Source of the DNA: a virus
Lineage: Duplodnaviria; Heunggongvirae; Uroviricota; Caudoviricetes
Strand: one strand, 5' to 3'
Virus record (IMG/VR): IMGVR_UViG_2529292831_000017
Span: 1 to 40,514 of that record
DNA length: 40,514 nucleotides
Below the pieces are notes generated by a model that was not told the origin of the DNA, searched no databases, and worked only from the letters and a program-made list of their open reading frames with translations. Position 1 is the stretch's first letter. Each line of letters starts with the position of its first letter. Positions 14,468-40,514 of this stretch are shown here, in pieces. The translations under genes were made by a program, and so were the position numbers.

Positions 14468-14468
14468 C

Positions 14469-16237: not shown

Positions 16238-16238
16238 T

Positions 16239-16947: not shown

Positions 16948-16950
16948 AAT

Positions 16951-17681: not shown

Positions 17682-17713
17682 CCCGTGCCGCCCGTGCGCG
17701 GGGGCACGTTCTG

Positions 17714-18364: not shown

Positions 18365-18367
18365 GGA

Positions 18368-19426: not shown

Positions 19427-19442
19427 CGGGTTTTGTGCTCCA

Positions 19443-20276: not shown

Positions 20277-20354
20277 GAGCCGTGCTCCGTTAGAAAAAAC
20301 TTACTGGAGCCTTATGGTTGCGGTGATGGGGGCAGTGAAACAATGAGCGGTATT

Positions 20355-20372
20355 TGTACCGACAACCACACA
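20355..20372. promoter_or_regulatory. TGT-N12-ACA dyad in the divergent O/P intergenic region (candidate Ogr site)
   Basis: TGTACCGACAACCACACA between the O and P start codons. Confidence 0.45.
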
Positions 20373-20418
20373 AACCGCAGGCGGGGAAAGCCTTCATTCA
20401 AGGCTGTAGGTTTGTTCC

Positions 20419-22185: not shown

Positions 22186-23213
22186 TGGGAAAGAGTAAGA
22201 AGAACCGCGCTGCGTCGACGAACCAGATCCAGCATAAAAGTCAAACTACAGCCGAAGCATTCAGCTTCGGTGATCCCGTTCCTGTTCTGGACCGCCGCGA
22301 ACTACTGGACTATGTGGAATGCGTACAAACAGATCGCTGGTATGAGCCGCCAGTAAGCTTTGACGGACTGGCGCGCACCTTCCGCGCCGCCGTGCATCAC
22401 AGTTCACCAATTGCGGTGAAATGCAACATTCTGACCAGTACCTACATCCCCCACCCGCTGCTCAGCCAGCAGGCTTTTTCACGTTTTGTGCAGGACTATC
22501 TGGTATTTGGTAACGCTTACCTGGAGAAACGCACGAACCGGTTCGGTGAAGTTATCGCCCTTGAGCCTGCTCTGGCAAAATACACCCGACGTGGGTTAGA
22601 CCTGGATACCTACTGGTTTGTGCAATACGGTATGACAACCCAGCCGTATCAGTTCACGAAAGGCAGCATTTTTCATCTGATGGAACCGGACATCAACCAG
22701 GAGATCTACGGCCTGCCCGGCTATCTTTCTGCCATTCCATCCGCCCTGCTCAACGAGTCCGCCACGCTGTTCCGCCGTAAGTATTACATCAACGGCAGCC
22801 ATGCAGGCTTCATCATGTACATGACCGACGCCGCGCAGAATCAGGAGGATGTGAACAACCTCCGCAACGCGATGAAAAGTGCCAAAGGTCCAGGCAACTT
22901 CCGCAACCTGTTTATGTACTCGCCTAACGGCAAAAAAGACGGGCTTCAGATCATCCCATTGTCAGAAGTCGCGGCGAAGGATGAATTTCTTAACATCAAG
23001 AACGTAAGTCGGGATGACATGATGGCGGCGCATCGTGTGCCGCCGCAGATGATGGGGATAATGCCAAACAATGTTGGGGGGTTTGGGGATATAGAAAAAG
23101 CCAGTTGCGTTTTTGTGCGAAATGAGTTAACTCCTTTACAAAAAAGACTTGTAGAAATTAATATTTGGCTAAAGAAAAAAATAATAGCCTTCAAAGATTA
23201 TTCATTGAATTAG
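22182..23213 (+). CDS. Q: Portal protein Q
   Basis: 343 aa, 4-bp overlap with P; P2 gpQ-like. Confidence 0.9.
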   Translation: MMGKSKKNRAASTNQIQHKSQTTAEAFSFGDPVPVLDRRELLDYVECVQTDRWYEPPVSFDGLARTFRAAVHHSSPIAVKCNILTSTYIPHPLLSQQAFSRFVQDYLVFGNAYLEKRTNRFGEVIALEPALAKYTRRGLDLDTYWFVQYGMTTQPYQFTKGSIFHLMEPDINQEIYGLPGYLSAIPSALLNESATLFRRKYYINGSHAGFIMYMTDAAQNQEDVNNLRNAMKSAKGPGNFRNLFMYSPNGKKDGLQIIPLSEVAAKDEFLNIKNVSRDDMMAAHRVPPQMMGIMPNNVGGFGDIEKASCVFVRNELTPLQKRLVEINIWLKKKIIAFKDYSLN

Positions 23214-23224
23214 ATAAAATGTGT

Positions 23225-23242
23225 GGGGGATGAAAATCCCCC
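23225..23242. terminator. Hairpin between convergent Q and the KAP-like gene
   Basis: GGGGGAT-GAAA-ATCCCCC stem-loop in the 37-bp gap between the two stop codons. Confidence 0.4.
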
Positions 23243-23250
23243 CTCCCAAA

Positions 23251-24933: not shown

Positions 24934-24970
24934 ATTATAACCCGAGTACTATCAAAGTAATAAGCGCGCG

Positions 24971-24989
24971 CTCGTATCCCCGCCACGCC
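24971..24989. other. Prophage cos site (186-type cohesive-end sequence)
   Basis: Reverse complement reads GGCGTGGCGGGGATACGAG, homologous to the 19-nt P2/186 cohesive end, and the flanking GCCCGCTTT...GCGGTTT also matches the second cos at 40245-40263. Confidence 0.6.
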
Positions 24990-25032
24990 TGCCCGCTTTA
25001 TGTAGCGGTTTTCATGCGCCTGCATGACATAA

Positions 25033-25057
25033 GCAAAATCCCGCCACTCCTGGCGGG
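25033..25057 (-). terminator. Rho-independent terminator downstream of the 203-aa membrane protein gene
   Basis: CCCGCCA / TGGCGGG stem with a T-run on the - strand (ATTTTGC). Confidence 0.5.
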
Positions 25058-25149
25058 CCTCAGCTAAAACGATCCTCAAACGATCATGCGGATTCATGCG
25101 GCATAGACATGCACAATCTCCAAAGCGGGCATCGAGACTTTTTGGAAAC

Positions 25150-25761
25150 CTACGTAACCACAGTTAATGTGTGCATCCTGTCTCGAATTGCATCACACGT
25201 CTCATCAAAAAGCTTGGTGATGGTTGTATGGTTCAACTCCGCCTCTTTCCAATAATTTTGCCCGTCAAATTCTGGATCGCTATGCTTAAACGATATTGAC
25301 TCTGAAAGGCATTCCTTCCGGAAACGGTCCAAGATTATATAAACCTCTGGTGAGATGAACGGTTTGTTAGATTCAACACTTGTAACAAAAGTGTTAAATG
25401 CATCAAAAAAAACTTTCAACCTTCTAAATTTTCTCTCTTCAAATGGTTCGTTGGGGTCAACATGATCCAGCGCAGGCCTCAGCTTAAGCACGCTTTCTCT
25501 GGTTTCAAACATCGAATTCCAAATGAGACTATATGCTGATAACTCCTTATCAAAATACGCTTTCGTTACATAAACAGAATTGTCTAACTTAGCCTTTATT
25601 CTTTCATTAGTTGCACTCAGTTGTGATTGAAATTCAGCAATATCTTTGTTTAGCCGCGACTTATATCTTTCTAAATAAACTTTCCCGATCCAAACAAATA
25701 TGCCAGATGCAACAAAAGACACCCCACCCAACGAAGCCAGAACTTTAAAGACCAAATCCAT
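25150..25761 (-). CDS. Accessory gene: 203-aa protein with one N-terminal TM helix and a coiled-coil-rich body
   Basis: Hydrophobic N-terminus LVFKVLASLGGVSFVASGIFVWIG; GC below backbone; between the SOS operon and cos, where P2 carries tin/old. Confidence 0.5.
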   Translation of the reverse strand: MDLVFKVLASLGGVSFVASGIFVWIGKVYLERYKSRLNKDIAEFQSQLSATNERIKAKLDNSVYVTKAYFDKELSAYSLIWNSMFETRESVLKLRPALDHVDPNEPFEERKFRRLKVFFDAFNTFVTSVESNKPFISPEVYIILDRFRKECLSESISFKHSDPEFDGQNYWKEAELNHTTITKLFDETCDAIRDRMHTLTVVT

Positions 25762-25809
25762 TGCGCCCCCACCTGCAAAAATAGTATTCCATTATAAGCT
25801 AATACATTT

Positions 25810-26025
25810 TTAATCAAACAGGGGATAATTCGCGTCAACCTCATCACTTCTCTGCTCTACCCTAGTGACTTCCATCAAAAACCCCAGGCCGTCATATAGC
25901 GAAACGGGGAATTCCAGCTCAAGCCAGAAGCAGTCTTCATAGATGCGGCCCAACCAAAAACCTCCGCCACACTCCTTTGGGCGTTGAAAGAAGACCCAGT
26001 CGCCAAGGGTTAAACGTTCCAGCAC
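25810..26025 (-). CDS. Hypothetical 71-aa protein
   Basis: ORF only; position downstream of the DinI-like gene. Confidence 0.3.
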   Translation of the reverse strand: MLERLTLGDWVFFQRPKECGGGFWLGRIYEDCFWLELEFPVSLYDGLGFLMEVTRVEQRSDEVDANYPLFD

Positions 26026-26143
26026 CTAGCCCCGATAAATAATCTGGTGATTACTGTCTTTTTTACCCATGGCTAACGCCTCGCTACTCTCGTTGTTCAA
26101 CCTTGCTGACGTCAGATTCAAGTTCTTACATCAGGAACGTTCC

Positions 26144-26377
26144 TTAGTGCAGCCAGCTGTCGTCTTCCCAAACCTGTTGCATAATTTCCATCACCCGCTT
26201 TTTGTCTTCATCAAGCTTTAAGCCACTCAGCTCAACGCCGTTTGCCGACCCTTTACGGATGCGGATAGCGGTCTTGGGATAGATGGGTAGCAGGTTGCGG
26301 TAAAGCTCGGACTCCAGAGCGTCCAGGGTAGACTGGCTAATCTTCTGCTCTTTATCGATCATTATTTCAATGCGCAT
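26144..26377 (-). CDS. dinI: DinI-like protein (77 aa from internal ATG)
   Basis: MRIEIMIDKEQKISQSTLDALESELYRNLL...DKKRVMEIMQQVWEDDSW aligns with E. coli DinI (MRIEVTIAK...ALAGEL...EILQETWE). Confidence 0.75.
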   Translation of the reverse strand: MRIEIMIDKEQKISQSTLDALESELYRNLLPIYPKTAIRIRKGSANGVELSGLKLDEDKKRVMEIMQQVWEDDSWLH

Positions 26378-26387
26378 AAAAGTCACC

Positions 26388-26576
26388 TCAGCTGATGACA
26401 TCCATTGAGCGGTTGTATTCGTGGCTTCTGATTTTTGCCATGAGTTCATCAGTCAATTCAGAAACCCACTGCAGGGCCAGCCCCTTCTCTTCATCACTAC
26501 ACTCACTAGCCGCTACAAGCTTAAGAAAAAAATCAATGCGCTGGAGCTTCAAAGACTCCAAAAAATAGTCCTGCAT
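26388..26576 (-). CDS. Small protein (62 aa), first gene of the LexA-box operon; possible Tum-like N-terminal part
   Basis: Strong SD AGGAGG 4 nt upstream of the ATG at 26574-26576; the tracked upstream extension runs through the LexA box and is unlikely to be translated. Confidence 0.45.
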   Translation of the reverse strand: MQDYFLESLKLQRIDFFLKLVAASECSDEEKGLALQWVSELTDELMAKIRSHEYNRSMDVIS

Positions 26577-26619
26577 CTTTCCTCCTATGACACCGCAAAC
26601 AATACTGTATAGATAATCA

Positions 26620-26635
26620 CTGCTTATATTTACAG
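26620..26635. promoter_or_regulatory. LexA box (SOS operator)
   Basis: CTGCTTATATTTACAG fits CTG-N10-CAG with an AT-rich centre; an adjacent weaker half-site CTGTATAGATAATCAC at 26605-26620. Confidence 0.65.
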
Positions 26636-26729
26636 TATATAATAATCTTACTGATGTAAAACGTTTTTTTACGTTCATCAGCCTGATATGCCTGGTATTA
26701 TTAAGAGCACGAATTGTTAACCCGCGTAA

Positions 26730-29144
26730 TTAATACAGGTTCCGCCACTTATCATCTTCCTGCAAACGCTGGTTCCGATAGAAGACACGCAGGCCTGCTC
26801 CTGACGGAATACTGCCGCCGCGAAGGAGTAAATCGACCTCTTTCTCGCTGCCATCAAATCCTCTGGACTTCAGTTCATAGACGAGCTGCTGTCGTTGATG
26901 GTCTGTAATTCGCTGTTTGTAGTCTCTACGCCGTTTCGGTTTCACCAGGCGTAACCTTGCAGCCAGTTCCCGGCGCTCTTTTTTGTTCATACTGTGCAGG
27001 TAATCGTGCAACTCCTTGTCATCCATGTGGGTAATGTCCGTTCTGGTATCCCCATCAGCTGATTTGTCTTTCCCTTGTTGGTTCAAATTTTCAGCAAGGG
27101 GACAGTTATTGCCACGAGTCCAAGGGGCGCAAGCGCCCTGGTCGGCTGCCGCCTCCTGAACGTCAACGGCCTTACGAACCATTTTCCACTTCACCGCATG
27201 AGTGCAGATCTTGCCCTCTGCAATGGGTGACCAGATGCCATAAATACGAATACCGTGATCGCCATAGGCGGTCGGTTCTTCGTTGATTTCATAAGCAGTT
27301 CTGATGAGGTGATATTTGCGGGGAACCAGTACGCCGCCCTGCTTCATGATGTAGGTGGCAAAACAACCAGCATCAGCAGCAGCCAGGATTGCATCAAGGC
27401 GCGGGTTATCCAGTACCGGCGCACCTGCTTTTTTGTCCCCCTGTTGCCTTGCCGCCTGACCAGCCAGCAATCGCAGTTCACGGTAAGCCTGACGCCCCGG
27501 AATGCCAAAGAAGCGGAATTGCTGAACACGATGCAGAGACGCCCAGGCATTAACGTATTCAGCGTTATCACGCAGGGATTTACCCGTTTCCTTGCTGATC
27601 TCGCCAGCCAGACCACGCCCGTCAATGTTCTTACTGATGTATTTCGCGATGTAGCTTGTTGGCGTACCTTTGCGCGGGTTTATCAGCTCAGACTTAAAGC
27701 GTGGTCCCGTGTTATTACCCAGCTCCTCGCGGTCTTCACGAATGGCAAACTTACGCAACAAAGCAGTAATGGTGCGGCGATCTTTTTTGCGCATAAAACA
27801 CAACAGATGCCAGTGAACTGTACCGTCATGATGCGGCTCAGCCACCCGCACGCCATACCAGCGCAATCCGGCTTTGTGCATCGCCTTACGAAATGCAGCA
27901 AACATGCCGACCAGATAATCACTGCTTTGTCTTACCGTCGCATTTGTCCAGGTCGGGTTGGGCCTGCCGTTATTTAGCGTGGAATGGAAACGTGACGGAC
28001 AGGTGATGGTGTAGAAAACGGCGCAGTCACCGCGCATTTCCGCGATAAGCTCCAGACCTTTAACACAGGCCATCATCTCATTGCGGCGATGCGCAGGGTT
28101 GCTGCTGCTGGCGTTTACCACATCCTCCATGTCCAGCGTGTCGCCGTCTTCGTTCACCAGTTCATGAGAACGGAAAAACTCCAGTGACTTGCGGCGCTGC
28201 TCACGTTTATGCATCACGGCTTCATAGCTGACATAGGGAGATGCTTTTTTGCTGACCAGGCAAACAGCACGCAACTGATCTTCCCGCCATTCGCAACGCA
28301 TCTTCCACAATTTCCGATACCACCAGTCGGCGCACAGCATACGCGCCAGCGACCCCGGAATGAGTTCATAGGGCACGGGTTTACGGCGGTTTCTTTTCCG
28401 GCGGAGTTGCTCAAACGCAGGCGGTATGACATCCAGTCGCAGGGTTTCTGCTGCCACCTTTTCCCATGTCTTGCGGATTTCTTCTGGCTTAACATCATCG
28501 GTGGCATACAAATCGCCACAAGCAGCATCAAGGCACATGCTCATATGCGCAGCTACCAAGGTGGACAGGCGTTTCACCTGATCCTGACTCATTTCAGGCA
28601 GAATCAGCAGGCCATCCAGCCCTTCATGGCTTGCCATAAAGCGAAAAGAAGTGGATAGCTGACTGTCGCGTACATGCTCCAGCCGTTCCAGACATGGCTT
28701 AATCGTCTCACACAAATAGCGGGAATAAGCCTTTGGCCTGCCCAGGCTGCTGAAGTATTCAATACGTTGCATCAGCGGCTTGCTGATATGGGAAGGCTGG
28801 GCGTTAACGTCCGCCAGAATGACCATGTCTGGATTAAAACGCTGCTGCTCATGCGCCAGCTTTGCCCAGCTAATGAGCTTATCCTGCTCCATTTCGCGTT
28901 GGACAGGATCACGGGATTCATTAAAGAAATAACGCTCCCAGACCTGAGCACTCAGTGCCTCGCGGCGCAGCTGTTCCTGCTCGTTATCGGCAGCGTACAG
29001 AGTGATCAGGTTTGAAAGCGCAGAAACCGGCGCGACTTCCGCCGGGTCCAGATAAGGGTTAATGGCCTTTTTCGGGCTGTTCCATGAGAATGCTGCGGCG
29101 GCCTCGTTAAAGCCGCTGCAGTTGTTCATATCAGCATGGCTCAT
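26730..29144 (-). CDS. A: Replication initiation endonuclease A (rolling-circle initiator)
   Basis: 804 aa; contains the tyrosine motif [12 protein letters not shown] typical of P2 gpA-family initiators. Confidence 0.9.
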
Positions 29145-29998
29145 GCACGCACTCCGTACACGGCAGAACTATCCACGCCACGCAAAGGATCAAATCCCAC
29201 CCAGCAGCGCGCCCCGGAAACAGCGATGATTTCTGTTGCAGATTTACTCTCACCAGCTGCTACGCCGATGCTGCGTTTTGCCTTGATGTAGTGGTGAGTA
29301 AAATTGCGATACAGCGAACGGATCAGGGATGTGTCACTGTTAGAAACAATGACCGGATGTCCTTCAGATGCTCGATGTTCAAGAACGGATGCCAGGTGAT
29401 ACTGGTCATCTTCAGTGAAACCATCAGTGTGATAGCCGGAAAACGTACCGTCATACGGCGGATCGCAATACACCACATCCCCCGCCTTCAACATCGCCAG
29501 CGTTTCATCAAAGCTGGCGCAGATAAACGTTGCCCGCTGGGCTTTTTCTGCAAATGCGCGAATTTCTTTTTCAGGTAAATACGGATTTTTATAATTACCG
29601 TAGGGAATGTTGAAATGCCCGCTCTTGTTATAGCGACATAAACCACGGTAACCGTGACGATTGAGATACAGGAAATATACCGCTTTCATGAAATCAGTAA
29701 TTTCAGTTGAGTAATTAAACTCCTGCCTTATGTTGTAATAAGCTACCTCCCTGTTTGCGATCTCAAATAAAACTCTGGCGCGAGATATAAACGATTCACA
29801 ATCAGCGGCAACCTTTTTATAGAGGTTGATTAAATCAGGATTAATATCCGCAACCAGATAGCTTGGATAATCCGTCTCCATCATCACCGCACAGGAACCC
29901 GCGAAAGGTTCAACCAGTCGCGGGCCAGCAGGAAGGTGTTTTTTCAGTTCGGACATAATTGCGGTTTTATTTCCCGCCCATTTCAGGATGGTGCTCAT
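29141..29998 (-). CDS. dam: DNA adenine methyltransferase (Dam-like)
   Basis: [12 protein letters not shown]-terminus and catalytic DPPY motif ([10 protein letters not shown]). Confidence 0.85.
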
Positions 29999-30222
29999 AC
30001 AGCACCTCCGTTGTAATGTTTGCCTTTCAGCTCTGCAATTTCCTGACAGGTAATGCAAAGCTGCACACCCGGAATGGCACGACGGCGTGCTGGCGGAATT
30101 GGCGCTTCACACTCAACGCAAAGCACGCGGGACACGCCCGGTGTTTTGGCACGGGCAGCACGGATATGACGTTGGCGTTCTTCTTCAACTCGCTGCTGTA
30201 CGAGATCCATTGCATCAGCCAT
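29995..30222 (-). CDS. TraR/DksA-family C4 zinc-finger protein
   Basis: CVECEAPIPPARRRAIPGVQLCITCQ, the four-Cys motif of TraR/DksA. Confidence 0.8.
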   Translation of the reverse strand: MADAMDLVQQRVEEERQRHIRAARAKTPGVSRVLCVECEAPIPPARRRAIPGVQLCITCQEIAELKGKHYNGGAV

Positions 30223-30461
30223 CAGTGGATCTCCTGCGCTTCGTTCTGGATTGCTTCAGCAGTCACACGCAGCAGTTCTGCCGCTTCGACGTGGTTTAAC
30301 TGGCGGGATGTGATATGACACGCCAGGCTATCAAGGCGGGCAGCCATTGCCTCAGCCCTTGCCCGACGTTCTTCAAGACGGGCCTCTGTCAGTAAAAGAT
30401 TAAGACCTGCATCATCCGGTCCGGTTTTAGTCGTGAGGGTTTCAATATTACGCATAATCAA
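30222..30461 (-). CDS. Hypothetical early-region protein (79 aa)
   Basis: ORF in the early operon, start overlapping the downstream gene. Confidence 0.4.
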   Translation of the reverse strand: MIMRNIETLTTKTGPDDAGLNLLLTEARLEERRARAEAMAARLDSLACHITSRQLNHVEAAELLRVTAEAIQNEAQEIH

Positions 30462-30522
30462 TTCTCCTGAATTTAGATAAAGGGATGCCCGGCGGGTTTA
30501 CGCCATTAATTTCATTAGTTGG

Positions 30523-30864
30523 TTAATTCGGCATGGTTAGCCGTCTGGGAAATAAGCTCACCACTGCACGAAAATGATTCATTGCTTTAATCAACTCCCG
30601 CTTTTCGTCAGTGGTCAGCTCATTAATGCTGATGCTATGACGTTCAGCTGGAATTTTTGCCATAAAGAATATGGCAGCCAGTGCCCGTTTATTTTGTTCG
30701 CTATTAATATCCCGTGAATCACGCATATCTTTAATAAACCGCTCAAGCTCTGACTCAATATTCAGGCCAAAAACTTTCGCCCTTAACTCCGCAATGTGAT
30801 TAAGTCCATTCAGGCGTTCACCGGGGCTTAATGGAACAGTCGCCGCAGTGCCTTCAATAGCCAT
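30523..30864 (-). CDS. Hypothetical early-region protein (113 aa)
   Basis: ORF with protein-like composition in the early operon. Confidence 0.4.
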   Translation of the reverse strand: MAIEGTAATVPLSPGERLNGLNHIAELRAKVFGLNIESELERFIKDMRDSRDINSEQNKRALAAIFFMAKIPAERHSISINELTTDEKRELIKAMNHFRAVVSLFPRRLTMPN

Positions 30865-30945
30865 TTATGCATCCCACAACACATCTACTAAAAAATTTTT
30901 GATATGATCCATTACCAACATATTGATAGCTAGAAGGAATCATCA

Positions 30946-31194
30946 ATGTTGAACCCGGTTGAAAGAGAGCGTATAGAGCAACTTGAAAACGAGATCTCCA
31001 GTCTTCGCGATGAGGTTGCTGTTCAACGAATTCTTGTTTCAGGTCTGATCCACTCCTTATTTCGAACTGACTCAGCAAATCAATCAGCATTTTTTGAGCT
31101 CCTCCGCGAAGAATTAAACAAACTTCCTTTAGGTTCGGTTAAACAACAAGAATTCACTCATCTGATACAGACACTGATAGATCGTTACCGATAA
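30946..31194 (+). CDS. Hypothetical 82-aa helical protein, antisense to the early operon
   Basis: SD AGGAA 7-8 nt upstream; predicted coiled-coil composition; preferred over the overlapping - strand ORF 30854-31090. Confidence 0.4.
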   Translation: MLNPVERERIEQLENEISSLRDEVAVQRILVSGLIHSLFRTDSANQSAFFELLREELNKLPLGSVKQQEFTHLIQTLIDRYR

Positions 31195-31409
31195 ATATTT
31201 CGCCGATAACGTTCAAGAGGTGATGTCTTTATACGCATCACTTCTTGTACTTTTTCACCACGTATAAAGGTTCCATCCTTTAGCGTGAAAAAGTAGCTAC
31301 CATCGCCCGACAACGACGGATAACAACAGAGCAAATCATCTTCAGGTACTGAATAATTCTCCCCTCTGTAACGAAAGTGATAAACCACTTTATTTTCTGC
31401 CGCATACAT
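31185..31409 (-). CDS. Hypothetical early protein (74 aa)
   Basis: ORF downstream of cII; overlaps the alternative ORF 31280-31606, whose N-terminal part is also protein-like. Confidence 0.35.
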   Translation of the reverse strand: MYAAENKVVYHFRYRGENYSVPEDDLLCCYPSLSGDGSYFFTLKDGTFIRGEKVQEVMRIKTSPLERYRRNIYR

Positions 31410-31583
31410 TTGGACTTTCTCCGTTTCCTCGTGGTCAATTCAGACAGCAATTCATCTTGTGAACGGCACGGATGCCAGCGTTTACCATCCTCACCCATGA
31501 TCCAGCCGTGACCGTAGTGCATTGCCGGGCTTTGTTTTACCAGCAGCGATGCAAATGATGGTTCTTTCGTCAGCATAAGCACC

Positions 31584-32093
31584 TCACAGCAAACCGAATG
31601 AAGCACCGAGGCCAGTCACGGTATCAACTGCACTCGCCATCGCAGGATTAGCCTGTAAACGGGCCTGCAATGAAACAGCCGCCAGCGCCATCAGTCGTGT
31701 TACAGAGTTAATGCTGCTGATAGCATCACGACGACCGGCACAGGTTTTTACATCGCCAGATACCGCACCTGCAGCAACACGCCCGATCTCTGCGGTTGCA
31801 CTCATGACGTAATGTGGCAGTTTCTCTTTTGCCACCTCATTAATCGGTACACATGGCAGACAATGAATCTGAGCCAGAAAGCCATCGACCAGCGTTGAAT
31901 CTTCAGTCAGATCGGTAAGCAACCAGATTTCTGACGGCGTGAGCTGATGTGATTGTTCCGGGTTAAGCTTGTTACGCAGCGTCTGGACGTTCATTCCCGC
32001 GCGTTCTGCCAGCTTCGCCATGTTGTGACGCAGTGCGAAAGCCCGACAGGCTTCATCAAAATGCGGATGTTTGGAAATCTTGTAATCAAACAT
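31584..32093 (-). CDS. cII: CII-like lysogeny-establishment regulator (169 aa)
   Basis: Same length as 186 CII and same position after apl; the 186-CII similarity is from recollection, not alignment. Confidence 0.75.
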   Translation of the reverse strand: MFDYKISKHPHFDEACRAFALRHNMAKLAERAGMNVQTLRNKLNPEQSHQLTPSEIWLLTDLTEDSTLVDGFLAQIHCLPCVPINEVAKEKLPHYVMSATAEIGRVAAGAVSGDVKTCAGRRDAISSINSVTRLMALAAVSLQARLQANPAMASAVDTVTGLGASFGLL

Positions 32094-32125
32094 GGTGCTC
32101 CCTTAGAAAGTTCCCATAATTGAAG

Positions 32126-32368
32126 TTACTTACCAACAATGACGCGGAAGTTGGAATGACCGAGGGATTCACGGACCTGATCAGTTTTGTACATCAGATA
32201 ACGCAGGCTTACGCGGCCTTTGTTTTTTTCTTTCTTGACCATGTACTTAGCGAGTTGGCCATGGTGAATTTTTTGGTAAACAGACCCACGGGAAATACCT
32301 TCCCATTCAGCGAATTCAGCAGGCGTAGCCATCTCTTTTGGTACACGAATTGAAATATCTGTGCTCAT
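32126..32368 (-). CDS. apl: Apl/Cox-like excisionase and switch regulator
   Basis: 80-aa basic protein, first gene of the lytic transcript, divergent from cI. Confidence 0.55.
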   Translation of the reverse strand: MSTDISIRVPKEMATPAEFAEWEGISRGSVYQKIHHGQLAKYMVKKEKNKGRVSLRYLMYKTDQVRESLGHSNFRVIVGK

Positions 32369-32475
32369 AGTGCAGTATCCTTAGATTTAAGTTAGTTTTA
32401 TCTCGTTTTAGATCACTTTCCGGGATTCCCCTTGCGGGATAATCGCGATACTACGATCACTTTAAGTGGTCGTCA
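32369..32475. promoter_or_regulatory. Immunity switch region with divergent pR/pL-type promoters
   Basis: 107-bp AT-rich spacer between divergent apl and cI, as in the 186 switch. Confidence 0.5.
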
Positions 32476-33120
32476 ATGGAGTATTTGATGATCAACATTC
32501 AGGCAGGTCCCAATACGGGAGGTAGAGAGGCGATCGAAAGATTGCTTAAGGCATATGGATTCAGCACCAAACAAGCACTAGCTGACCATTTAAAAATTTC
32601 AAAAAGTACTATGGCAAACAGAAACTTACGAGATAGCTTTCCTGCTGAGTGGGTCATCCAGTGTGCACTTGAAACAGGGGTTTCGCTGCTATGGCTAGCC
32701 ACAGGCCAGGGTGAAATGTTCACTTCAGAAGATCGAGAAAAAAATCCCGTAAACGAGTCAAACGTCACGCTTCGACCACTTTCCAAAATCGTTGCCCCCA
32801 GCATTAAGCAAGCCGAATTGAAGAATGGGGAGTTGAATAACGAAGGGGAAGTCTTGCTTGATAGCAGCTTACTGGACAGTGAGCCCGGCAATTCATTGTT
32901 TATAAAAACGTCTACTGACTGCTTTGTAGTGGATATATCTGTCAAACAGGTTAGCAATGGTTACTGGCTTGTCGATATTGATGGGGTGAAAAGCATCGTC
33001 AAGATTGCCCGAATACCAGGCAACAGAATTGTTGTTCACCAGGACGACTCATCCTTTGAGTGTTCTGTTGATGATGTGGAAGTTGTCGGGCGAGCCATTA
33101 AAGTAATCAAGAGTATTTAG
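32476..33120 (+). CDS. cI: CI-type immunity repressor
   Basis: N-terminal HTH-like segment (KQALADHLKISKSTMANRN) plus C-terminal domain; co-oriented with and directly upstream of int. Confidence 0.75.
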   Translation: MEYLMINIQAGPNTGGREAIERLLKAYGFSTKQALADHLKISKSTMANRNLRDSFPAEWVIQCALETGVSLLWLATGQGEMFTSEDREKNPVNESNVTLRPLSKIVAPSIKQAELKNGELNNEGEVLLDSSLLDSEPGNSLFIKTSTDCFVVDISVKQVSNGYWLVDIDGVKSIVKIARIPGNRIVVHQDDSSFECSVDDVEVVGRAIKVIKSI

Positions 33121-33122
33121 TC

Positions 33123-34142
33123 ATGACCATCAGGAAACAGCCGAACGGAAAATGGTTGTGTGAGTGCTACCCTAACGGGCGGGACGGCAAGCGCGTGCGC
33201 AAGCAATTTGCGACGAAAGGCGAAGCCGTAGCATTCGAAAACTTCACCATGGATGAAGTAAACAAAAAACCATGGCTGGGGGAAAAGGAAGATCGGCGGC
33301 ATCTGTCAGAAGTGATAGAGCAATGGCACTCACTATACGGGCAGACGCTCGCAGACCCCAAACGCCTGATGGCGAAACTTAGAATTATCTGTAATGGCCT
33401 GGGCGACCCTATCGCCTCAGAGCTGACCGCCGGAGATTTTACGAAATACCGTGAAGCGCGATTAAAAGGTGAAGTGCGAAATGAAGATGGCGCGCTTATG
33501 TCGCCAGTTAAGCCCCGAACGGTAAACCTCGAACAACGCAACCTATCATCAGTTTTTGGGACTCTGAAAAAACTGGGCCACTGGTCAGCCCCTAACCCGC
33601 TCGCCGGTCTGCCAACATTCAAAATCGCAGAGGGTGAACTGGCATTCCTGACCCCAGAAGAAATTAAACGCCTGCTGGATGCCTGCGCGGATTCTCAAAG
33701 CCCCAGCCTGCTGATGATTGCAAAAATATGCCTAGCTACTGGTGCGCGGTGGAGTGAAGCAGAAAACCTGCAGGGCCATCAGTTATCAAAATACCGCATC
33801 ACTTATACCAAGACGAAGGGCAAGAAAAACCGTACCGTGCCGATATCTCAGGATCTGTATGACGAACTCCCCAAGAACAGAGGGAAGTTATTCACCCCAT
33901 GCAGAAAAGCTTTTGAGCGTGCAGTTAAACGAGCTGGTATCGACTTGCCAGAGGGACAATGTACCCACGTCTTGCGCCATACATTCGCCAGTTACTTTAT
34001 GATGAATGGAGGGAATATTCTTGTACTAAGAGATATTTTAGGCCATTCAGATATAAAAATGACTATGGTCTATTCTCATTTTTCACCTGAGCATCTTGAA
34101 GATGCTGTAACAAAAAACCCTTTATCATCACTAGCGATTTAA
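33123..34142 (+). CDS. int: Tyrosine integrase (P2/186 Int-like)
   Basis: C-terminal catalytic region HVLRHTFASYFMMNGGNILVLRDILGHSDIKMTMVYSH with the R...HxxR...Y signature. Confidence 0.9.
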   Translation: MTIRKQPNGKWLCECYPNGRDGKRVRKQFATKGEAVAFENFTMDEVNKKPWLGEKEDRRHLSEVIEQWHSLYGQTLADPKRLMAKLRIICNGLGDPIASELTAGDFTKYREARLKGEVRNEDGALMSPVKPRTVNLEQRNLSSVFGTLKKLGHWSAPNPLAGLPTFKIAEGELAFLTPEEIKRLLDACADSQSPSLLMIAKICLATGARWSEAENLQGHQLSKYRITYTKTKGKKNRTVPISQDLYDELPKNRGKLFTPCRKAFERAVKRAGIDLPEGQCTHVLRHTFASYFMMNGGNILVLRDILGHSDIKMTMVYSHFSPEHLEDAVTKNPLSSLAI

Positions 34143-34146
34143 CATA

Positions 34147-35358
34147 ATGAAAATTAATAAAATTAGTACCACAGATTATGTAGCAATGCTTAATGAAATA
34201 TTATTCGAAATAGAGTCCAAACCACTATTAAAAGCTCCTTATCTCGCGGGAAATAATATCATTAAAGATTTTAACAATAGGGTTAAATGTTACCTAGAAG
34301 TCATAAACAAGATTTACAGTAAAAACCCTCACAACCTTGTAATTCGTGAAATAAAATCAAAAATAAAAAGCACAAAAACACTCTCGGATAAAATTTCAGA
34401 AACACTTAGATTATATTTAAACGGTAAAATCAAAGAATCTTACCTAACATTTGATCACGCTATCACCAAGACAAATATAAATGACCACATCTATAATATG
34501 TCCGTTCCATTAAGTGTGTTTTGTCATCCTGGAAAACCTCTATTTCGCGTAAGAAAAAGCGATCAAATAATAAAAGAAAGGCGTGATATCTTTCATATTC
34601 CTTTTTCTAAACGTTATCTTGTGAATGCACAAAGATACTCAGTCTCAGGCCTTCCTTGTTTATATTTAGGAACCTCTATTTTTGTATGTTGGCAAGAAAT
34701 GGAAAAACCAGACTTTGATAAATTATATGTATCTTCATTCATCACAGAGTCTGGTTCATCACATAGAATACTTAACCTTGGTTATAATTTGAGATCAGCA
34801 TTGAACATAAACACCTTAGCATGGCTGTTAGATAATGATACTGAAGGAACTATGAATAGGGTCATTTCGAACTTAATTTCCTGGCCACTTGTGTTAGCCT
34901 GTAATTATACAAAACAACATAAAAACTCTAGTTTCAACCCTGAGTACATAATCCCCAACCTTCTTATGCAATGGCTCAGCAGCAATGAAAATAAGGGCAT
35001 AGCCGGTATCGCTTATCGCACGACTAAAATTCTCAATCAAAAAGATAGTGATATTGGTATTAATATAATCATGCCACCTAAAATGGATAATATTTTGGAT
35101 TCTGGTTATGATTACTGCCCACACTTACTAAGTGTATTTAAATTTACCAAACCTGTTTCATGGCAAGTATTTAGCACTTTAAACGTCAAGACCGATGGTA
35201 TGGATGAAGATAGACTCATAATGGGAGGACCAACTCCAGCATCAGGTACAATTGAAGATTTTGATGAATCGCTAGTGGAATATTACAATAATACCTCATT
35301 CAAAAAAGTTCAATTGTTAATTCATAAAATGATGAAGCATGATTATCTTGAGCCTTAA
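34147..35358 (+). CDS. Accessory gene: 403-aa protein with RES-domain-like motifs
   Basis: About 30% GC; starts 4 bp after the int stop; LFRVRK...QRYSVSGLPCLYLGTSIFVCWQEM and later GIAGIAYRTTKI...GINIIMPP follow the RES pattern (conserved Arg, Glu, Ser/Thr). Confidence 0.5.
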   Translation: MKINKISTTDYVAMLNEILFEIESKPLLKAPYLAGNNIIKDFNNRVKCYLEVINKIYSKNPHNLVIREIKSKIKSTKTLSDKISETLRLYLNGKIKESYLTFDHAITKTNINDHIYNMSVPLSVFCHPGKPLFRVRKSDQIIKERRDIFHIPFSKRYLVNAQRYSVSGLPCLYLGTSIFVCWQEMEKPDFDKLYVSSFITESGSSHRILNLGYNLRSALNINTLAWLLDNDTEGTMNRVISNLISWPLVLACNYTKQHKNSSFNPEYIIPNLLMQWLSSNENKGIAGIAYRTTKILNQKDSDIGINIIMPPKMDNILDSGYDYCPHLLSVFKFTKPVSWQVFSTLNVKTDGMDEDRLIMGGPTPASGTIEDFDESLVEYYNNTSFKKVQLLIHKMMKHDYLEP

Positions 35359-35387
35359 GTGGCGGCGTTTTGGCGGTAGAGTATTAA
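35359..35387. repeat. 29-bp imperfect direct repeat, copy 1 (copy 2 at 36317-36345)
   Basis: GTGGCGGCGTTTTGGCGGTAGAGTATTAA versus CTGGCGGCACTTTGGCGGCAGAGCATTAA (24/29 identical); each ends in the stop codon region of a cargo gene. Confidence 0.6.
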
Positions 35388-35391
35388 GAGG

Positions 35392-36345
35392 ATGCAGTTA
35401 CAAAAAACCTCTAACTCCATTATAGAAATAGGAAGTGATCTGATGAATAACATCATCTATACAAACGAACAATATGAAATCGAAAATCTAAGTATAGCCC
35501 TGTATGCAATTTTCGATAAAATAAAAGAAAGGATTTCCATCGCCGAAGAATCTAACATTTACACTATCAGAGATGTTGGTCATAACTCGGAATCTCAAGT
35601 TTGCAAAAACACTTTTAATAAATTAACGCAATTTTTTGATTCAAACATTCTTTACATCCAAGACTGTGAAGTCTTAATTTCATATATAACAGAGTGCAGT
35701 TTGGAACTCTCTGTTATAGCGCAACAATTTTATGAAATACTCTGGAGCGATTTGTTAATAACCACACCAGACAAAGATTTTAAAGGGATTTTAGTAGCAA
35801 AATCGCCAAAAACAAGCTTGCTATTTTCTTTGTTAAGCATGCTATTTATAAAAATGAATAGTTTGTTTGACTACGTTACTAAAATCTCCTTTGAATTATT
35901 AAAGAGTAACTTCCCAATCTCTAAATACAAGAAATTAATATCCAAAAATAAATTATACGGCAACTATAAAGAATTAGTTTTTTCGACAACAACGGATACC
36001 ATATTTGAAAATAGCAATTTTATAAACACTGTAACATCATTACGAAATCATATAATTCACCACGGTTATATAGATGAGCACCCAAAGGTATATGTTGAAG
36101 TGGAAAATGGCATTGCATTTGGGAGATTTGTACTATTCCCCGATTTGAATGAGAGTGGAGGACTGGAAAATTGCATTAACAGAACTTTATTCTATTCAAA
36201 AGAAACAAAGATTGATGAAAAATTACCTGACTTAATTAAGGAATGCCAAATTAAAGTAATTAACTCGTTGAAGGTACTAATTAAAGATCATGAAGCATTA
36301 GAAGATTCAAGAAAGACTGGCGGCACTTTGGCGGCAGAGCATTAA
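35392..36345 (+). CDS. Accessory gene: 317-aa protein with an Rx4H (HEPN-like) motif
   Basis: About 30% GC; motif SLRNHIIHHG parallels SLRNALFHNG in the 13616 ORF; the ATG at 35443 has the better SD (AGGAAG, 7-nt spacer). Confidence 0.5.
   Translation: MQLQKTSNSIIEIGSDLMNNIIYTNEQYEIENLSIALYAIFDKIKERISIAEESNIYTIRDVGHNSESQVCKNTFNKLTQFFDSNILYIQDCEVLISYITECSLELSVIAQQFYEILWSDLLITTPDKDFKGILVAKSPKTSLLFSLLSMLFIKMNSLFDYVTKISFELLKSNFPISKYKKLISKNKLYGNYKELVFSTTTDTIFENSNFINTVTSLRNHIIHHGYIDEHPKVYVEVENGIAFGRFVLFPDLNESGGLENCINRTLFYSKETKIDEKLPDLIKECQIKVINSLKVLIKDHEALEDSRKTGGTLAAEH
36317..36345. repeat. 29-bp imperfect direct repeat, copy 2
   Basis: See copy 1; a related sequence AGTGGCGGCAAAATGGCGACAGAC also occurs near attL (1107-1130). 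Confidence 0.6.
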
Positions 36346-36430
36346 AAACGAGTAAAATGAACAAACACCGAGTAATACCAACCTACTGTTTTAAAAAGCA
36401 AATCATTGTTTTTGTTATAGTTAAGATAGT

Positions 36431-36478
36431 ATGTAGGAATTTCGGACGCGGGTTCAACTCCCGCCAGCTCCACCAAAT
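36431..36478. repeat. attR: second copy of the 48-bp ssrA 3' end
   Basis: Exact copy of 1016-1063; flanks diverge immediately outside the repeat. Confidence 0.85.
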
Positions 36479-36659: not shown

Positions 36660-37856
36660 GTGGCACGGACAACACGCCCCCTGACCAACACCGAAGTTCT
36701 GCGCGCTAAAGCGATGGAGAAGGATCTAACGCTGCATGATGGCGATGGCCTTTTCCTAATAGTGAAAACCAGCGGGAAAAAGCTCTGGCGCTTCCGTTAT
36801 CAACGTCCAGTGACAAAACAGCGGACAATGATGGGACTAGGTGCTTTCCCCGCTCTTTCACTTGCTGACGCCCGAGGGTTAAGAGCAGATTACCTTGCCT
36901 TGTTAGCCAACGGAATTGACCCACAAATTCAGGCCGAAGTTGCAAAGGAACAGCAGCAAATCGCTCTGGACAGTATTTTTTCAACGGTTGCCGCTAACTG
37001 GTTCCAGCTCAAAAGTAAAAGCGTTACCCCTGATTACGCAAAAGACATTTGGCGTTCACTGGAGAAAGATGTATTCCCTGTCATTGGTGAGATCCCCGTT
37101 CAGCAAATCAAAGCACGAACTTTGGTTGAAGCCCTTGAGCCAATCAAAGCTCGTGGGGCGCTTGAGACTGTACGTCGACTTGTGCAGCGCATCAACGAGA
37201 TAATGATTTATGCCGTAAACACTGGTCTGATTGATGCCAATCCAGCATCAGGTATTGGAATGGCCTTTGAGAAGCCCAAAAAACAAAACATGCCGACGCT
37301 GCGGCCAGAAGAATTGCCGAAGCTGATGCGTTCTTTGGTTATGTCTAATCTGTCTGTTCCGACGCGTTGTCTTATTGAGTGGCAACTTCTCACGCTTGTG
37401 CGCCCTTCTGAAGCATCCGGCACTCGATGGGCAGAAATCGATCTCGATGCCAAGCTCTGGACGATCCCAGCCGAACGGATGAAGGCCAAGCGTGAACATA
37501 TTGTTCCTCTATCTCCTCAGGCATTAGAGATTCTGGAAGTAATGAGGCCAATCAGTGCTCACCGTGAGCATGTTTTTCCAAGCAGAAATGATCCAAAGCA
37601 AGCGATGAATAGTCAGACTGCAAATGCCGCGTTAAAACGAATTGGATATGGAGGTAAATTAGTAGCTCATGGTTTGCGCTCAATAGCGAGTACTGCTATG
37701 AATGAAGCTGGTTTTAATTCAGATGTGATTGAAGCAGCACTCGCTCATAGTGATAAAAATGAAGTGCGAAAAGCTTATAATCGCGCGACATATATCAATG
37801 CTAGAAAAGAAATTATGAATTGGTGGGGAAATTGCATCAATAAAAGTAAGATCTAA
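36660..37856 (+). CDS. P4-type tyrosine integrase (CP4-57 IntA-like)
   Basis: 398 aa, GTG start with SD AAGGAG; N-terminal arm-binding-type domain plus catalytic region (HGLRSIAST...LAHSD...VRKAYNRATY); P4-family integrases typically target ssrA and tRNA genes. Confidence 0.9.
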   Translation: MARTTRPLTNTEVLRAKAMEKDLTLHDGDGLFLIVKTSGKKLWRFRYQRPVTKQRTMMGLGAFPALSLADARGLRADYLALLANGIDPQIQAEVAKEQQQIALDSIFSTVAANWFQLKSKSVTPDYAKDIWRSLEKDVFPVIGEIPVQQIKARTLVEALEPIKARGALETVRRLVQRINEIMIYAVNTGLIDANPASGIGMAFEKPKKQNMPTLRPEELPKLMRSLVMSNLSVPTRCLIEWQLLTLVRPSEASGTRWAEIDLDAKLWTIPAERMKAKREHIVPLSPQALEILEVMRPISAHREHVFPSRNDPKQAMNSQTANAALKRIGYGGKLVAHGLRSIASTAMNEAGFNSDVIEAALAHSDKNEVRKAYNRATYINARKEIMNWWGNCINKSKI

Positions 37857-37878: not shown

Positions 37879-38787
37879 TTAGATCATGGTTGCTATGCGT
37901 TCTTTTAAATAACCAAATTGCGTGTAGCCTTCATTCTTTTTAATTAAACTTGCTATTTGAGACTCGTTATAGCTACCTTCAAATCCATAAAGACAGAGCT
38001 CATCATTCCCACTGTAACAAAACTGACATTTATCTACCTCATCATGCAGACATTTTGTTTTCAACCCTTTAATTTCACCAATTAACATTCGGCAGAATTC
38101 GCCAATTAACCACTTACCTTTACATATATTAAGTAAACCTGCTAAGTCTTTGCTTACCCCCATCTGAATAGCAAATTCATCAAGTTCTTTTTCTCGCTCA
38201 ACAATTTTTTCAAAAGCGCCTATATTTTTCAAGTGTTGAACGCTCATCTTATATGATGCTAGAGATTCATAATCTTTCACGCAAGCTTTTTTCAAGCACT
38301 CTAAAGACATATAATACAACGACATTAGAGCCTCTGCTAAATTTTCATAGAGCATCTCAATTAACTCACTGGTTAGCAATTTTGGCTGTATTCTTGTACA
38401 TTGTTCAATAACACATTTTATTGCCTGCCGTGTGATAAAATGGCTTTCCATCGAGTACCATCTCAGCACAAAAACGGCTGAATTATTAACAACTTCACCT
38501 CGGTAGTAGCGAGCATCTCGATCTATAATGCCTAAAATGTAGTGCCCTAAATCCCCCTCATACTCAAGTTCAAGTAATGCCTCAATAAAGTCAATTACAC
38601 CTCTATTACCTTCACTCATATCCTTGAAATTCTGAACAGCAACCACCTCGAAATATTTATCAAGCTGTTGACAAATGCCTTCATAAATTGAAATGTCATC
38701 GACGCCTTCAACGACTAACATTGGCGTTTCAGACATAATTGCCTCATTCAATATTTCATCATACTCCATACTCAGCCAATCGTTCAT
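37879..38787 (-). CDS. ariB: TOPRIM/DUF4435-like nuclease, PARIS AriB-like (302 aa)
   Basis: N-terminal LVVEGVDD glutamate motif and ILGIIDRDARYY DxD motif; AT-rich; 4-bp overlap with the upstream ATPase gene. Confidence 0.55.
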   Translation of the reverse strand: MNDWLSMEYDEILNEAIMSETPMLVVEGVDDISIYEGICQQLDKYFEVVAVQNFKDMSEGNRGVIDFIEALLELEYEGDLGHYILGIIDRDARYYRGEVVNNSAVFVLRWYSMESHFITRQAIKCVIEQCTRIQPKLLTSELIEMLYENLAEALMSLYYMSLECLKKACVKDYESLASYKMSVQHLKNIGAFEKIVEREKELDEFAIQMGVSKDLAGLLNICKGKWLIGEFCRMLIGEIKGLKTKCLHDEVDKCQFCYSGNDELCLYGFEGSYNESQIASLIKKNEGYTQFGYLKERIATMI

Positions 38788-40079
38788 TTCGAATTATTCT
38801 CAATTTTAACCGGTGCAAGTTTAACCAGACTGTTGGGTGACTTCTTAGATATGATAGGGCTATGAGAGGCCACGATTATTTGTGTTTCTGGCACTAATTC
38901 CTGTAGAAGACTCAGCAATGTACGTTGCCATTTGATATTAAGAGAAATTTCTGGCTCATCAATAAGTAGAATATCTCTTCCACGACCTGCAATTATAACT
39001 ATTGATAGAAAGGTAAGAATATGCCTTTCACCACTTGATAATGCTCCGATGGATAAATGAGAGTCTTCAGTTTCAACATATATCTCATGCTTATTAATAA
39101 TTAACTTTTTATCTCCAACCAAGAAGGAGTTAAAGACATCAACCAAGATGTTAATGGAACTTAAAAGTTGTTTCTCAACCTTTAATTCACGAGTCATATT
39201 CATGACTAACTTTCTCAACAGTTGGTTTTCAAGTATTTTATTAACATCAGATTCACTTTGTATTGATGATAAAATATTAACAACATGATTTTTAAAATTA
39301 TTCTCAAAACCATCATCCAACGCTTCAATAATCCTCTCTTTATTTTTATATACATCACTCTCAAAATTCGAAGGCATCACGATATCTTCAGAAGTTTTCT
39401 TTGCATCCACTGCTATGGCCAACGTATCAAACAACGCATTTTGAATTCTTTCAGTAGCTATATTCCTTGCTAATAGATAACGTTCAACAAGCATATTCTC
39501 GATATTACTCATTTTTATATTTTGAAGAAAAACATGTTTTGCATCTAAATCCATATCATCTTTTTTATTTCTCCTCCTGTTGTTTTGATATCTCTTTAGA
39601 AACATTGCCATCCTTTCACTAAACAAATGAATATCTGTCTTCGCAAATAAAGAGCGATATTCTGGATGACCAAGAAATCTCAAAATATCCACTGGTTCAA
39701 CTTTCAATGACTCTGATGTTACGCCCCTCTCCACACCAAGAGATAATGATGTACAATCAGCTAATTCAGAATCGACAAGATCGCTCCAGTCGTATGAGTC
39801 TTTAATAATCCCCTCTTCTCCCTCCTCTTGAATCTGTCTTACTGGTACAAACTCTCTTTCTCCATTATTTTTCTCATAATAGATTTCAACATACATTACA
39901 TTTTCGCTTGCAAGCGACTCATCATCACGTTTAAGGATAGAATGTATTAATTTCAAAAATGTAGTTTTACCGCAACCATTATCACCATAAATAACAGATA
40001 TGTCACCATCAGCAAATTCAACATAAGCTGCTCTGTTAATTGATTGGAAGCCTGCAATGTATATAGATAATAGCTTCAT
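38784..40079 (-). CDS. ariA: ABC-type ATPase, PARIS AriA-like (431 aa)
   Basis: Walker A GDNGCGKTT, ABC signature LSSGERHIL, Walker B ILLIDEPE, H-loop ASHSP; AT-rich. Confidence 0.6.
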   Translation of the reverse strand: MKLLSIYIAGFQSINRAAYVEFADGDISVIYGDNGCGKTTFLKLIHSILKRDDESLASENVMYVEIYYEKNNGEREFVPVRQIQEEGEEGIIKDSYDWSDLVDSELADCTSLSLGVERGVTSESLKVEPVDILRFLGHPEYRSLFAKTDIHLFSERMAMFLKRYQNNRRRNKKDDMDLDAKHVFLQNIKMSNIENMLVERYLLARNIATERIQNALFDTLAIAVDAKKTSEDIVMPSNFESDVYKNKERIIEALDDGFENNFKNHVVNILSSIQSESDVNKILENQLLRKLVMNMTRELKVEKQLLSSINILVDVFNSFLVGDKKLIINKHEIYVETEDSHLSIGALSSGERHILTFLSIVIIAGRGRDILLIDEPEISLNIKWQRTLLSLLQELVPETQIIVASHSPIISKKSPNSLVKLAPVKIENNSK

Positions 40080-40244
40080 TACATCTCCATTATTGCATCA
40101 AGGGTTTAGTTTTAAGAAAATGCCCGAGAAGTTTATTACAACTAACCATATGATTCTACAACCATAAAGACTTTAACTTTTTTCTCATCAATCACAAGTC
40201 CTTGAAGTGAAAATTTATAATTATAAATTCTTTGCCTACGCGCA

Positions 40245-40263
40245 GTGCTTTCCCCGCCTCGCC
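40245..40263. other. P2/P4-type cos site
   Basis: Reverse complement is GGCGAGGCGGGGAAAGCAC, matching (from recollection) the 19-nt P2/P4 cohesive end, in a GC-rich non-coding stretch. Confidence 0.6.
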
Positions 40264-40514
40264 CGCCCGCTTTGCGGGGCGGTTTCAATGCAGTTGCACT
40301 GACACGCTCAGGCCGCGCCGGGAATGGCGCGGTCTGCAGAAAATGAGGCAGGAAAACGCATGCAAAGCCATGCACCTTATCGATGCATGGCTTTTTTCAG
40401 TAAAAACGGGCGGATTTTCGGGGAATTTTACACAGACTGATGTGATGCCAGTTGCGCACTTTTACGCGAAAAAATCATGTTCTGCGCAGGAGTGAATTTT
40501 TCACGGCTGTCATC

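Follow-up and report, generated by a model that had tools for sequence, protein, structure and literature searches.

A PARIS-type AriA-AriB pair from a four-cysteine AriB clade in the psu-int hotspot of a P4-like satellite

PARIS (phage anti-restriction-induced system) is a two-gene defence system, and the representatives assayed by Rousset et al. (2022; PMC9122126) were PARIS-1 of Escherichia coli O42 and PARIS-2 of E. coli B185. In the B185 system a hexamer of the ATPase AriA sequesters the nuclease AriB, which is released by Ocr in an ATP-dependent manner, and the released AriB dimer cuts host tRNA (Lys, Thr, Asn), arresting translation (Rousset et al., 2022; Burman et al., 2024; Deep et al., 2024). 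PARIS-1 is distantly homologous to the B185 system, and the defence profiles of the two overlap without being identical (Rousset et al., 2022; PMC9122126). The ariA and ariB genes co-evolve in matching clades, of which 11 were counted (Burman et al., 2024; PMC11464382). The defence hotspot of P4, the psu-int interval, lies directly beside cos (Rousset et al., 2022; PMC9122126). Here we describe a pair of genes encoding a 431-amino acid (aa) ATPase and a 302-aa nuclease in the viral (Caudoviricetes) record IMGVR_UViG_2529292831_000017 of IMG/VR; the whole stretch analysed, of 40,514 nucleotides (nt), is called the window below. The pair, which was not among the systems assayed by Rousset et al. 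(2022), is a known PARIS system and an ordinary example in a known hotspot. Its nuclease belongs to a clade with a conserved four-cysteine motif.

Assignment of the gene pair to PARIS

The pair very probably constitutes a two-gene PARIS abortive-infection module that occupies, as cargo, the psu/cos-int hotspot in a P4-like satellite integrated at ssrA. Its features are as follows.

37879..38787, minus strand: ariB-like effector of 302 aa, with a DUF4435/TOPRIM nuclease domain and a helical C-terminal domain
38784..40079, minus strand: ariA-like ABC/SMC-type ATPase of 431 aa (Pfam, PADLOC, phmmer), the putative sensor and sequestering scaffold
38446..38709, minus strand: TOPRIM catalytic core, E27, D31, D89, D91 and E114 (alignment of 39 homologues, hhalign)
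37993..38052, minus strand: C246-x7-C254-x2-C257-x7-C265 (CLHDEVDKCQFCYSGNDELC), proposed structural zinc knuckle (alignment and motif count)
39963..39986, minus strand: Walker A, GDNGCGKT (motif; alignment to 8ux9_B)
38952..39041, minus strand: ABC signature LSSGE (39027..39041) and Walker B ILLIDEP (38952..38972) (motifs)

Both open reading frames (ORFs) lie, as the initial annotation of the window had described them, on the minus strand, overlap (by 4 nt, ATGA) and are AT-rich, with a GC content of 0.335 for the ATPase and 0.361 for the nuclease ORF, vs. 0.47 for the integrase gene beside them and 0.487 for the whole window. They are not chance ORFs since both are long for DNA of 33-36% GC, and full-length homologues of both exist in Pseudomonas, Vibrio, and Bacillus. 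The two-gene order, ATPase followed by nuclease, is kept in the neighbourhoods of the Pseudomonas and Bacillus homologues, i.e., those that were checked. A GGAG Shine-Dalgarno sequence is located 7 nt before the ATG of ariA, and the 4-nt overlap allows translational coupling of ariA and ariB.

The rule of Rousset et al. (2022; PMC9122126) for the detection of PARIS, which is of the DefenseFinder type, asks for adjacent genes, one with at least 32 bits for AAA_15 or at least 27 bits for AAA_21 and one with at least 27 bits for DUF4435. In Pfam searches the ATPase scored 76.2 bits for AAA_21 and 62 bits for AAA_15, and the 302-aa protein scored 42.9 bits for DUF4435 (PF14491; gathering threshold, GA, 27) over residues 21-203; all three scores exceed the Pfam gathering thresholds. 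Since these scores exceed the cut-offs and the genes overlap by 4 nt, the pair falls under this operational rule. The top three PADLOC models for the ATPase are all AriA (best PDLC04164, 1.2e-28), followed by weaker matches to PtuA (many models, 6e-20 and weaker), MADS3, GajA, and AbiLi, while the only matches of the 302-aa protein are to AriB (PDLC02983, 4.2e-13), AriAB, and PDC-M38B. NCBIfam gave no model for the 302-aa protein and only sub-threshold generic ABC matches for the ATPase, and PHROGs gave no family for the 302-aa protein. The search with AriA/AriB and DUF4435 profiles that had been proposed together with the initial annotation thus retrieves both genes, and the reading of the pair as AriA/AriB holds by the rule of Rousset et al. 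(2022), by the top PADLOC models and by the best structural match of the nuclease (see below).

For calibration we used the PARIS of B185 type that strain CFSAN061761 carries in this hotspot (locus L002); its AriB matches PDB 8ux9_A at E ~1e-203. On the same PADLOC models the B185-type proteins reached 4.8e-32 (AriA) and 4.6e-09 (AriB). The B185-type AriB (L002:3074-3997) and the window protein match the same three PADLOC models, ranked alike, but on the AriB model the former scores 34.7 bits vs. 48 bits for the latter, and the B185-type AriB fails to reach Pfam DUF4435 at E 0.001. Because the B185-type protein scores lower or, for Pfam, is missed, the window protein is, of the two, the more central member of the DUF4435 family. 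This makes the B185-type AriB, the type protein of PARIS, an outlier of its own family, and profile detectors are tuned more to clades like that of the window.

The ATPase possesses a Walker A motif (G32-DNGCGKT), an ABC signature (LSSGE at 347), and a Walker B motif (ILLIDEP at 370). Its residues 21-426 align to residues 23-444 of the AriA chains 8ux9_B/8v45_A at E 2.5e-14 (phmmer), with K38 corresponding to K39 of canonical AriA in the alignment to 8ux9_B; in the phmmer search of PDB sequences, PtuA is the next family after AriA (~1e-7). The stretch of the ABC signature and Walker B is the best conserved with canonical AriA (44% over 81 aa). Judged from these alignments, the ATPase is homologous to the solved AriA along its full length, including the Walker A lysine, the signature, and the Walker B glutamate.

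The 302-aa protein contains VEG at 26-28, DRD at 89-91, and CLHDEVDKCQFCYSGNDELC at 246-265, and the TOPRIM-like glutamate and DxD motifs noticed initially can be located at E27 within VEG and at DRD 89-91. Both E27, D31, D89, D91, and E114 and a GKW motif (224-226) are invariant in 39 homologues. The metal-binding, catalytic residues of AriB are E26, D30, D88, E90, and E122 (Burman et al., 2024; PMC11464382), and hhalign sets E27, D31, D89, D91, and E114 against these, with one conservative change in the metal site, from the canonical E90 to D91. An AlphaFold2 model of the 302-aa protein, based on the 39-sequence alignment, had a mean predicted local distance difference test (pLDDT) of 93.8 and a predicted template modelling score (pTM) of 0.89. 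Only two PDB chains were significant Foldseek matches and both are AriB (8ux9_A, E 7e-7; 8v46_D, 1.6e-5). The next structural neighbours are OLD-family nucleases and the retron Ec67 TOPRIM, but the match to AriB comprises 227 aligned residues vs. 119-140 for the OLD-family, GajA, and Ec67 TOPRIM proteins, and the likeness to AriB therefore reaches past the TOPRIM core into the helical C-terminal domain. According to the model, the 302-aa protein has the AriB two-domain fold, i.e., TOPRIM plus a helical C-terminal domain.

In a matching locus (L001) the two proteins are annotated as WP_042075471 (AAA family ATPase) and WP_001726305 (DUF4435 domain-containing protein). Table S1 of Rousset et al. 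(2022; PMC9122126) lists these two accessions together, as “AAA_15/AAA_21 + DUF4435”, for several P4 loci. The pair had, therefore, already been catalogued as of PARIS type in the P4 hotspot, in line with the initial expectation of a known class rather than a new one. The class itself is not new: the psu-int hotspot of P4 is the textbook location of PARIS. Its modest value is that of a pointer: the RefSeq names are only generic, and the effector is missed by pairwise searches against the two validated PARIS systems.

The four-cysteine motif and the distribution of its clade

The initial annotation had mentioned, and left unexplained, a C-terminal cluster of three cysteines in the nuclease. The cluster is indeed present but contains four cysteines, the first of which (C246) lies eight residues before the CQFC quoted at the time. 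C246, C254, C257, and C265 are all invariant in the 39 aligned homologues, and the pattern C-x(5-10)-CxxC-x(5-10)-C occurs in the C-terminal part of 171 out of 187 full-length clade members (in 130 of the 171 with the exact spacing of the window protein). The exceptions have longer loops, have lost one cysteine or, in the most distant members, have lost all four. By these alignments the cluster is a four-cysteine motif conserved throughout the clade. A CxxC motif was found neither in the B185-type (canonical) AriB nor in the O42 AriB sequence.

The model places C246 at the end of a helix, C254 and C257 at the start of a short helix, and C265 in the loop after it. A layout of cysteines over a helix end, a short helix, and a loop is the usual arrangement of a zinc knuckle. 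Judged from its sequence, the motif is, therefore, probably a clade-specific structural zinc knuckle with a bracing rather than a catalytic role in the helical C-terminal domain; the four cysteines would bind one structural Zn2+, bracing a loop of this domain outside the catalytic centre. In canonical AriB the C-terminal domain takes part in dimerisation and probably in contacting the substrate. The mechanistic studies of PARIS that were consulted mention neither zinc nor cysteine, and a literature search for AriB and zinc returned only author-name collisions.

Homologues of the nuclease, of ca. 300 aa, occur in Cronobacter, Yersinia, Pantoea, Vibrio, Pseudomonas, Providencia, Bacillus cereus, and several metagenome assemblies. 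An exhaustive hidden Markov model (HMM) search of 1.84 billion representatives yielded 410 proteins at E <= 0.001, of which 188 reached E <= 1e-30. Seen from this search, the four-cysteine AriB clade is compact and well separated, with ca. 190 clusters at 50% identity, and occurs on mobile elements of Proteobacteria and Bacillus (those checked). In Pseudomonas aeruginosa a 310-aa homologue comes after a 441-aa AAA_15/AAA_21 ATPase, with an integrase nearby. In B. cereus (L005:1-5909, Logan SRR33868136) a 302-aa homologue follows a 430-aa ATPase directly downstream of TniB and TniQ/TnsD, so that this pair, from a Firmicute, is likely carried by a Tn7-like transposon. Since the B. cereus pair adjoins Tn7-like genes, the same PARIS module is found on very different mobile elements. 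The full-length ATPases are 44% (P. aeruginosa) and 39% (B. cereus) identical to that of the window and the nucleases 34-35%, and the conservation of the pair in these two species fits the co-evolution of ariA and ariB stated by Burman et al. (2024). The clade could reveal the breadth of the trigger and tRNA specificity of PARIS and the role of the zinc site, be it in stability, docking, or substrate choice.

The P4-like satellite and the adjacent prophage

The surroundings of the pair consist of the following features.

40080..40244, minus strand: AT-rich leader 5' of ariA, 165 bp (sequence)
40245..40263, minus strand: P2/P4 cohesive-end (cos) 19-mer GGCGAGGCGGGGAAAGCAC, the right edge of the hotspot (exact match)
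40264..40514, minus strand: P4-homologous cos-proximal region, including the 3' end of psu (40428..40514, cut at the window end) (identity to X51522)
36660..37856, plus strand: P4-type tyrosine integrase of 398 aa, the left conserved flank of the hotspot (Pfam domains)
36428..36478, plus strand: duplicated 3' end of ssrA, the att core and left edge of the P4-like satellite (blastn within the window)

The position between a P4-type integrase and a P2/P4-type cos, as given in the initial annotation, is confirmed by the Pfam domains of the integrase (Arm-DNA-bind_3, Phage_int_M, and Phage_integrase) and by the exact 19-mer; the gene at 36660..37856 is also labelled integrase in the 99.9%-identical E. 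coli loci. GGCGAGGCGGGGAAAGCAC directly adjoins the segment homologous to the terminus of the linear P4 genome and is also contained in the cloned PARIS-2 insert (Rousset et al., 2022, Table S2). The remainder of the window, which starts at 40264 and includes the end of psu, shares 97.6% identity with the right end of phage P4 (X51522 11374..11624). The psu translation in the window ends ...SAQLASHQSV (stop), and psu is annotated at the equivalent place in locus L001. In E. coli strain 100181 a 99.9%-identical int-ariB-ariA-psu segment is followed by delta, sid, a helix-turn-helix (HTH) regulator, icd, and the alpha primase-helicase. Because psu, delta, sid, icd, and alpha continue in the near-identical E. 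coli loci, the element is confirmed as a P4-like satellite, which is complete in strain 100181. The genes that were to be sought beyond the pair, i.e., psu, delta, and sid, were thus all encountered, the end of psu in the window and the other two in the 99.9%-identical loci. Window and L001 together have the composition of the hotspot, with cargo between a P4-type int and cos/psu and with delta, sid, and alpha beyond. The pair occurs in 4 out of 5,426 complete E. coli genomes, three of which come from isolates of a single strain; in every case it is chromosomal, with 99.9-100% identity.

At the other end of the window a full-length ssrA/tmRNA gene is present at 698..1060, and its 51-bp 3' end (1013..1063) is repeated at 36428..36478 with 98% identity (blastn within the window). 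A P2-like prophage (~1064..36427), with genes for tape-measure (3559..6636), gpP terminase (20419..22185), GPA replication (26730..29144), and integrase (33123..34142) proteins, is situated between the two copies of the ssrA 3' end, in tandem with the P4-like satellite. A P2-type phage and a P4-type satellite are adjacent in one chromosome because both sit at the same ssrA site; it is the pairing in which P2 serves as helper. In the four E. coli genomes with the same PARIS pair the satellite follows directly after ssrA, with no prophage between.

The prophage itself contains two further regions of note. At 34147..36345 on the plus strand, between the P2-like integrase and the att repeat, two ORFs of 403 and 317 aa (GC ~0.30) gave no Pfam and no PADLOC match, and matched only the PHROGs of unknown function phrog_7835 and phrog_31026 (E 1e-181 and 1e-223). 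As candidates for uncharacterised cargo or defence genes of the prophage, they lie elsewhere than in the published gpA-gpQ hotspot of P2; strain CFSAN061761 has an integrase and a 408-aa hypothetical protein just before the P4 integrase. Within the published P2 hotspot, between gpQ (22182..23213, assigned as the portal gene by its position beside the terminase gene only) and gpA (26730..29144), the region 23251..25761 on the minus strand encodes a 560-aa KAP-family P-loop NTPase (Pfam KAP_NTPase; PADLOC candidate PDC-S49, 2e-25; phrog_4740) and a 203-aa protein without Pfam or PADLOC match (phrog_26391, of unknown function). It probably represents a candidate defence system of a predicted PDC class.

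Mode of action, alternative readings, and comparison with described systems

By analogy with B185, the 431-aa AriA would form an oligomeric scaffold that keeps the 302-aa TOPRIM nuclease AriB inactive. A phage protein, such as Ocr for B185, would bind AriA, leading to the ATP-dependent release of AriB, and the freed AriB would dimerise and cleave specific host tRNAs. This cleavage would stop translation and abort the infection.

A number of results weigh against the assignment of the pair to PARIS and against this mode of action. BLASTP comparison of the window AriB gave no significant similarity to either the B185-type AriB (E 0.52) or the AriB of O42 (PARIS-1), the sequence of which was taken from Table S2 of Rousset et al. 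(2022) (E 0.12), and the hhalign match to canonical AriB is weak (E 0.0065, probability 5.8%). The HMM of 39 sequences did not retrieve AriB from the PDB sequences and yielded only a spurious chemoreceptor match (E 0.38), as did phmmer with the single sequence (E 0.98). Because the pairwise similarity is insignificant, the membership of the 302-aa protein in PARIS rests on family profiles and predicted structure, and the PARIS function of the clade would follow from that of B185 by analogy. AriB of B185 contacts AriA via R28 and R31 (Burman et al., 2024; PMC11464382), and the corresponding positions in the window AriB are G28 and D31, i.e., no arginine, so that the mode of docking between AriA and AriB may differ here. 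Furthermore, a consensus scan of the minus strand revealed no sigma-70-like site in the 165-bp leader of ariA, and PARIS-1 was inactive from its native promoter and needed an inducible one (Rousset et al., 2022; PMC9122126). The promoter/terminator consensus scan produced site counts over the scanned region no higher than in shuffled sequences, and such a scan is too crude to exclude an ariA promoter. The activity of PARIS-1 indicates that divergent PARIS clades are functional.

The differences in docking residues and the extra cysteines raise the question whether the clade is a mechanistically distinct PARIS subtype in which the knuckle is a functional module and not only a brace, which we regard as conceivable but rather doubtful. 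In that case the knuckle could serve in tRNA/RNA recognition and thereby change the substrate, or act as a switch for AriA docking or dimerisation in place of the B185 R28/R31 contacts, and both trigger range and target could depart from the Ocr/tRNA-Lys paradigm. It is unlikely that the pair merely resembles PARIS and belongs elsewhere in the wider OLD/Gabija/AbiL superfamily of ABC-ATPase and TOPRIM pairs, with, for example, an effector that cuts DNA, as those of Gabija and P2 Old do, or the sensing of something other than a phage protein. In favour of this reading, profiles and structure alone reveal the similarity to AriB, the next neighbours in structure are OLD-family nucleases and the retron Ec67 TOPRIM, the ATPase also matches PtuA, MADS3, GajA, and AbiLi models, and the four cysteines could form a nucleic-acid-binding knuckle for a different substrate. 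A fused OLD/Gabija GajA identity was rejected in view of the two separate ORFs and an OLD structural match of only 119 residues.

CxxC-containing cysteine clusters also occur in HNH nucleases, and together with the many PtuA models that match the ATPase (6e-20 and weaker) this would fit a Septu- or retron-type PtuA-PtuB pair, in which the cysteine cluster would be the zinc finger of an HNH nuclease. However, the 302-aa protein matches no HNH model of Pfam and no PtuB model of PADLOC, its fold is that of TOPRIM/AriB, the conserved acidic residues are in the N-terminal TOPRIM domain, and the alignment shows no invariant His or Asn column within the cysteine motif (H248 of the window protein is not conserved), which renders such a pair extremely improbable. 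An HNH nuclease of Septu type, the finding that would have overturned the initial annotation, was thus not encountered, and the HNH/Septu identity was rejected since domain searches and fold search point to TOPRIM/AriB. The last alternative, a decayed or silent remnant with intact ORFs but no expression or function in this host, would agree with the leader lacking a recognisable sigma-70 promoter, with PARIS-1 being active only from an inducible promoter and with the rarity of the allele (4 out of 5,426 complete E. coli genomes). Yet neither ORF is truncated, the catalytic and ATPase motifs are all intact, the two ORFs are 99.9-100% identical between unrelated isolates, and a good Shine-Dalgarno sequence precedes a 4-nt overlap that permits translational coupling; we consider a remnant very unlikely, and a PARIS module remains the preferred reading of the pair.

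Among the described systems, Septu and the PtuA-PtuB pair of retron Ec78 share with the window a related ABC ATPase and a two-gene defence operon, but their effector is an HNH nuclease whereas that of the window is a TOPRIM/DUF4435 protein. OLD-family nucleases, Gabija GajA, and the retron Ec67 TOPRIM combine ATPase and TOPRIM in a single fused protein, in contrast to the separate genes in the window. PARIS-1 of E. coli O42 (Rousset et al., 2022; pFR84) is, like the pair in the window, a combination of an ATPase and a DUF4435 protein in the P4 hotspot, but the window AriB has no significant similarity to the O42 AriB (E 0.12), which is without CxxC. PARIS-2 of E. coli B185 (PDB 8ux9, 8v45-8v49), the proteins of which strain CFSAN061761 also carries in this hotspot, has an AriA of 464 aa instead of 431 aa, and the two share only a stretch of 81 aa at 44%. 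Its AriB is not alignable by BLASTP with that of the window (E 0.52), has E90 where the window has D91, possesses R28 and R31, which are absent here, and lacks the CxxC of the four-cysteine motif present in the window AriB. Based on these sequence comparisons, the pair in the window is a distant clade relative to both validated PARIS systems.

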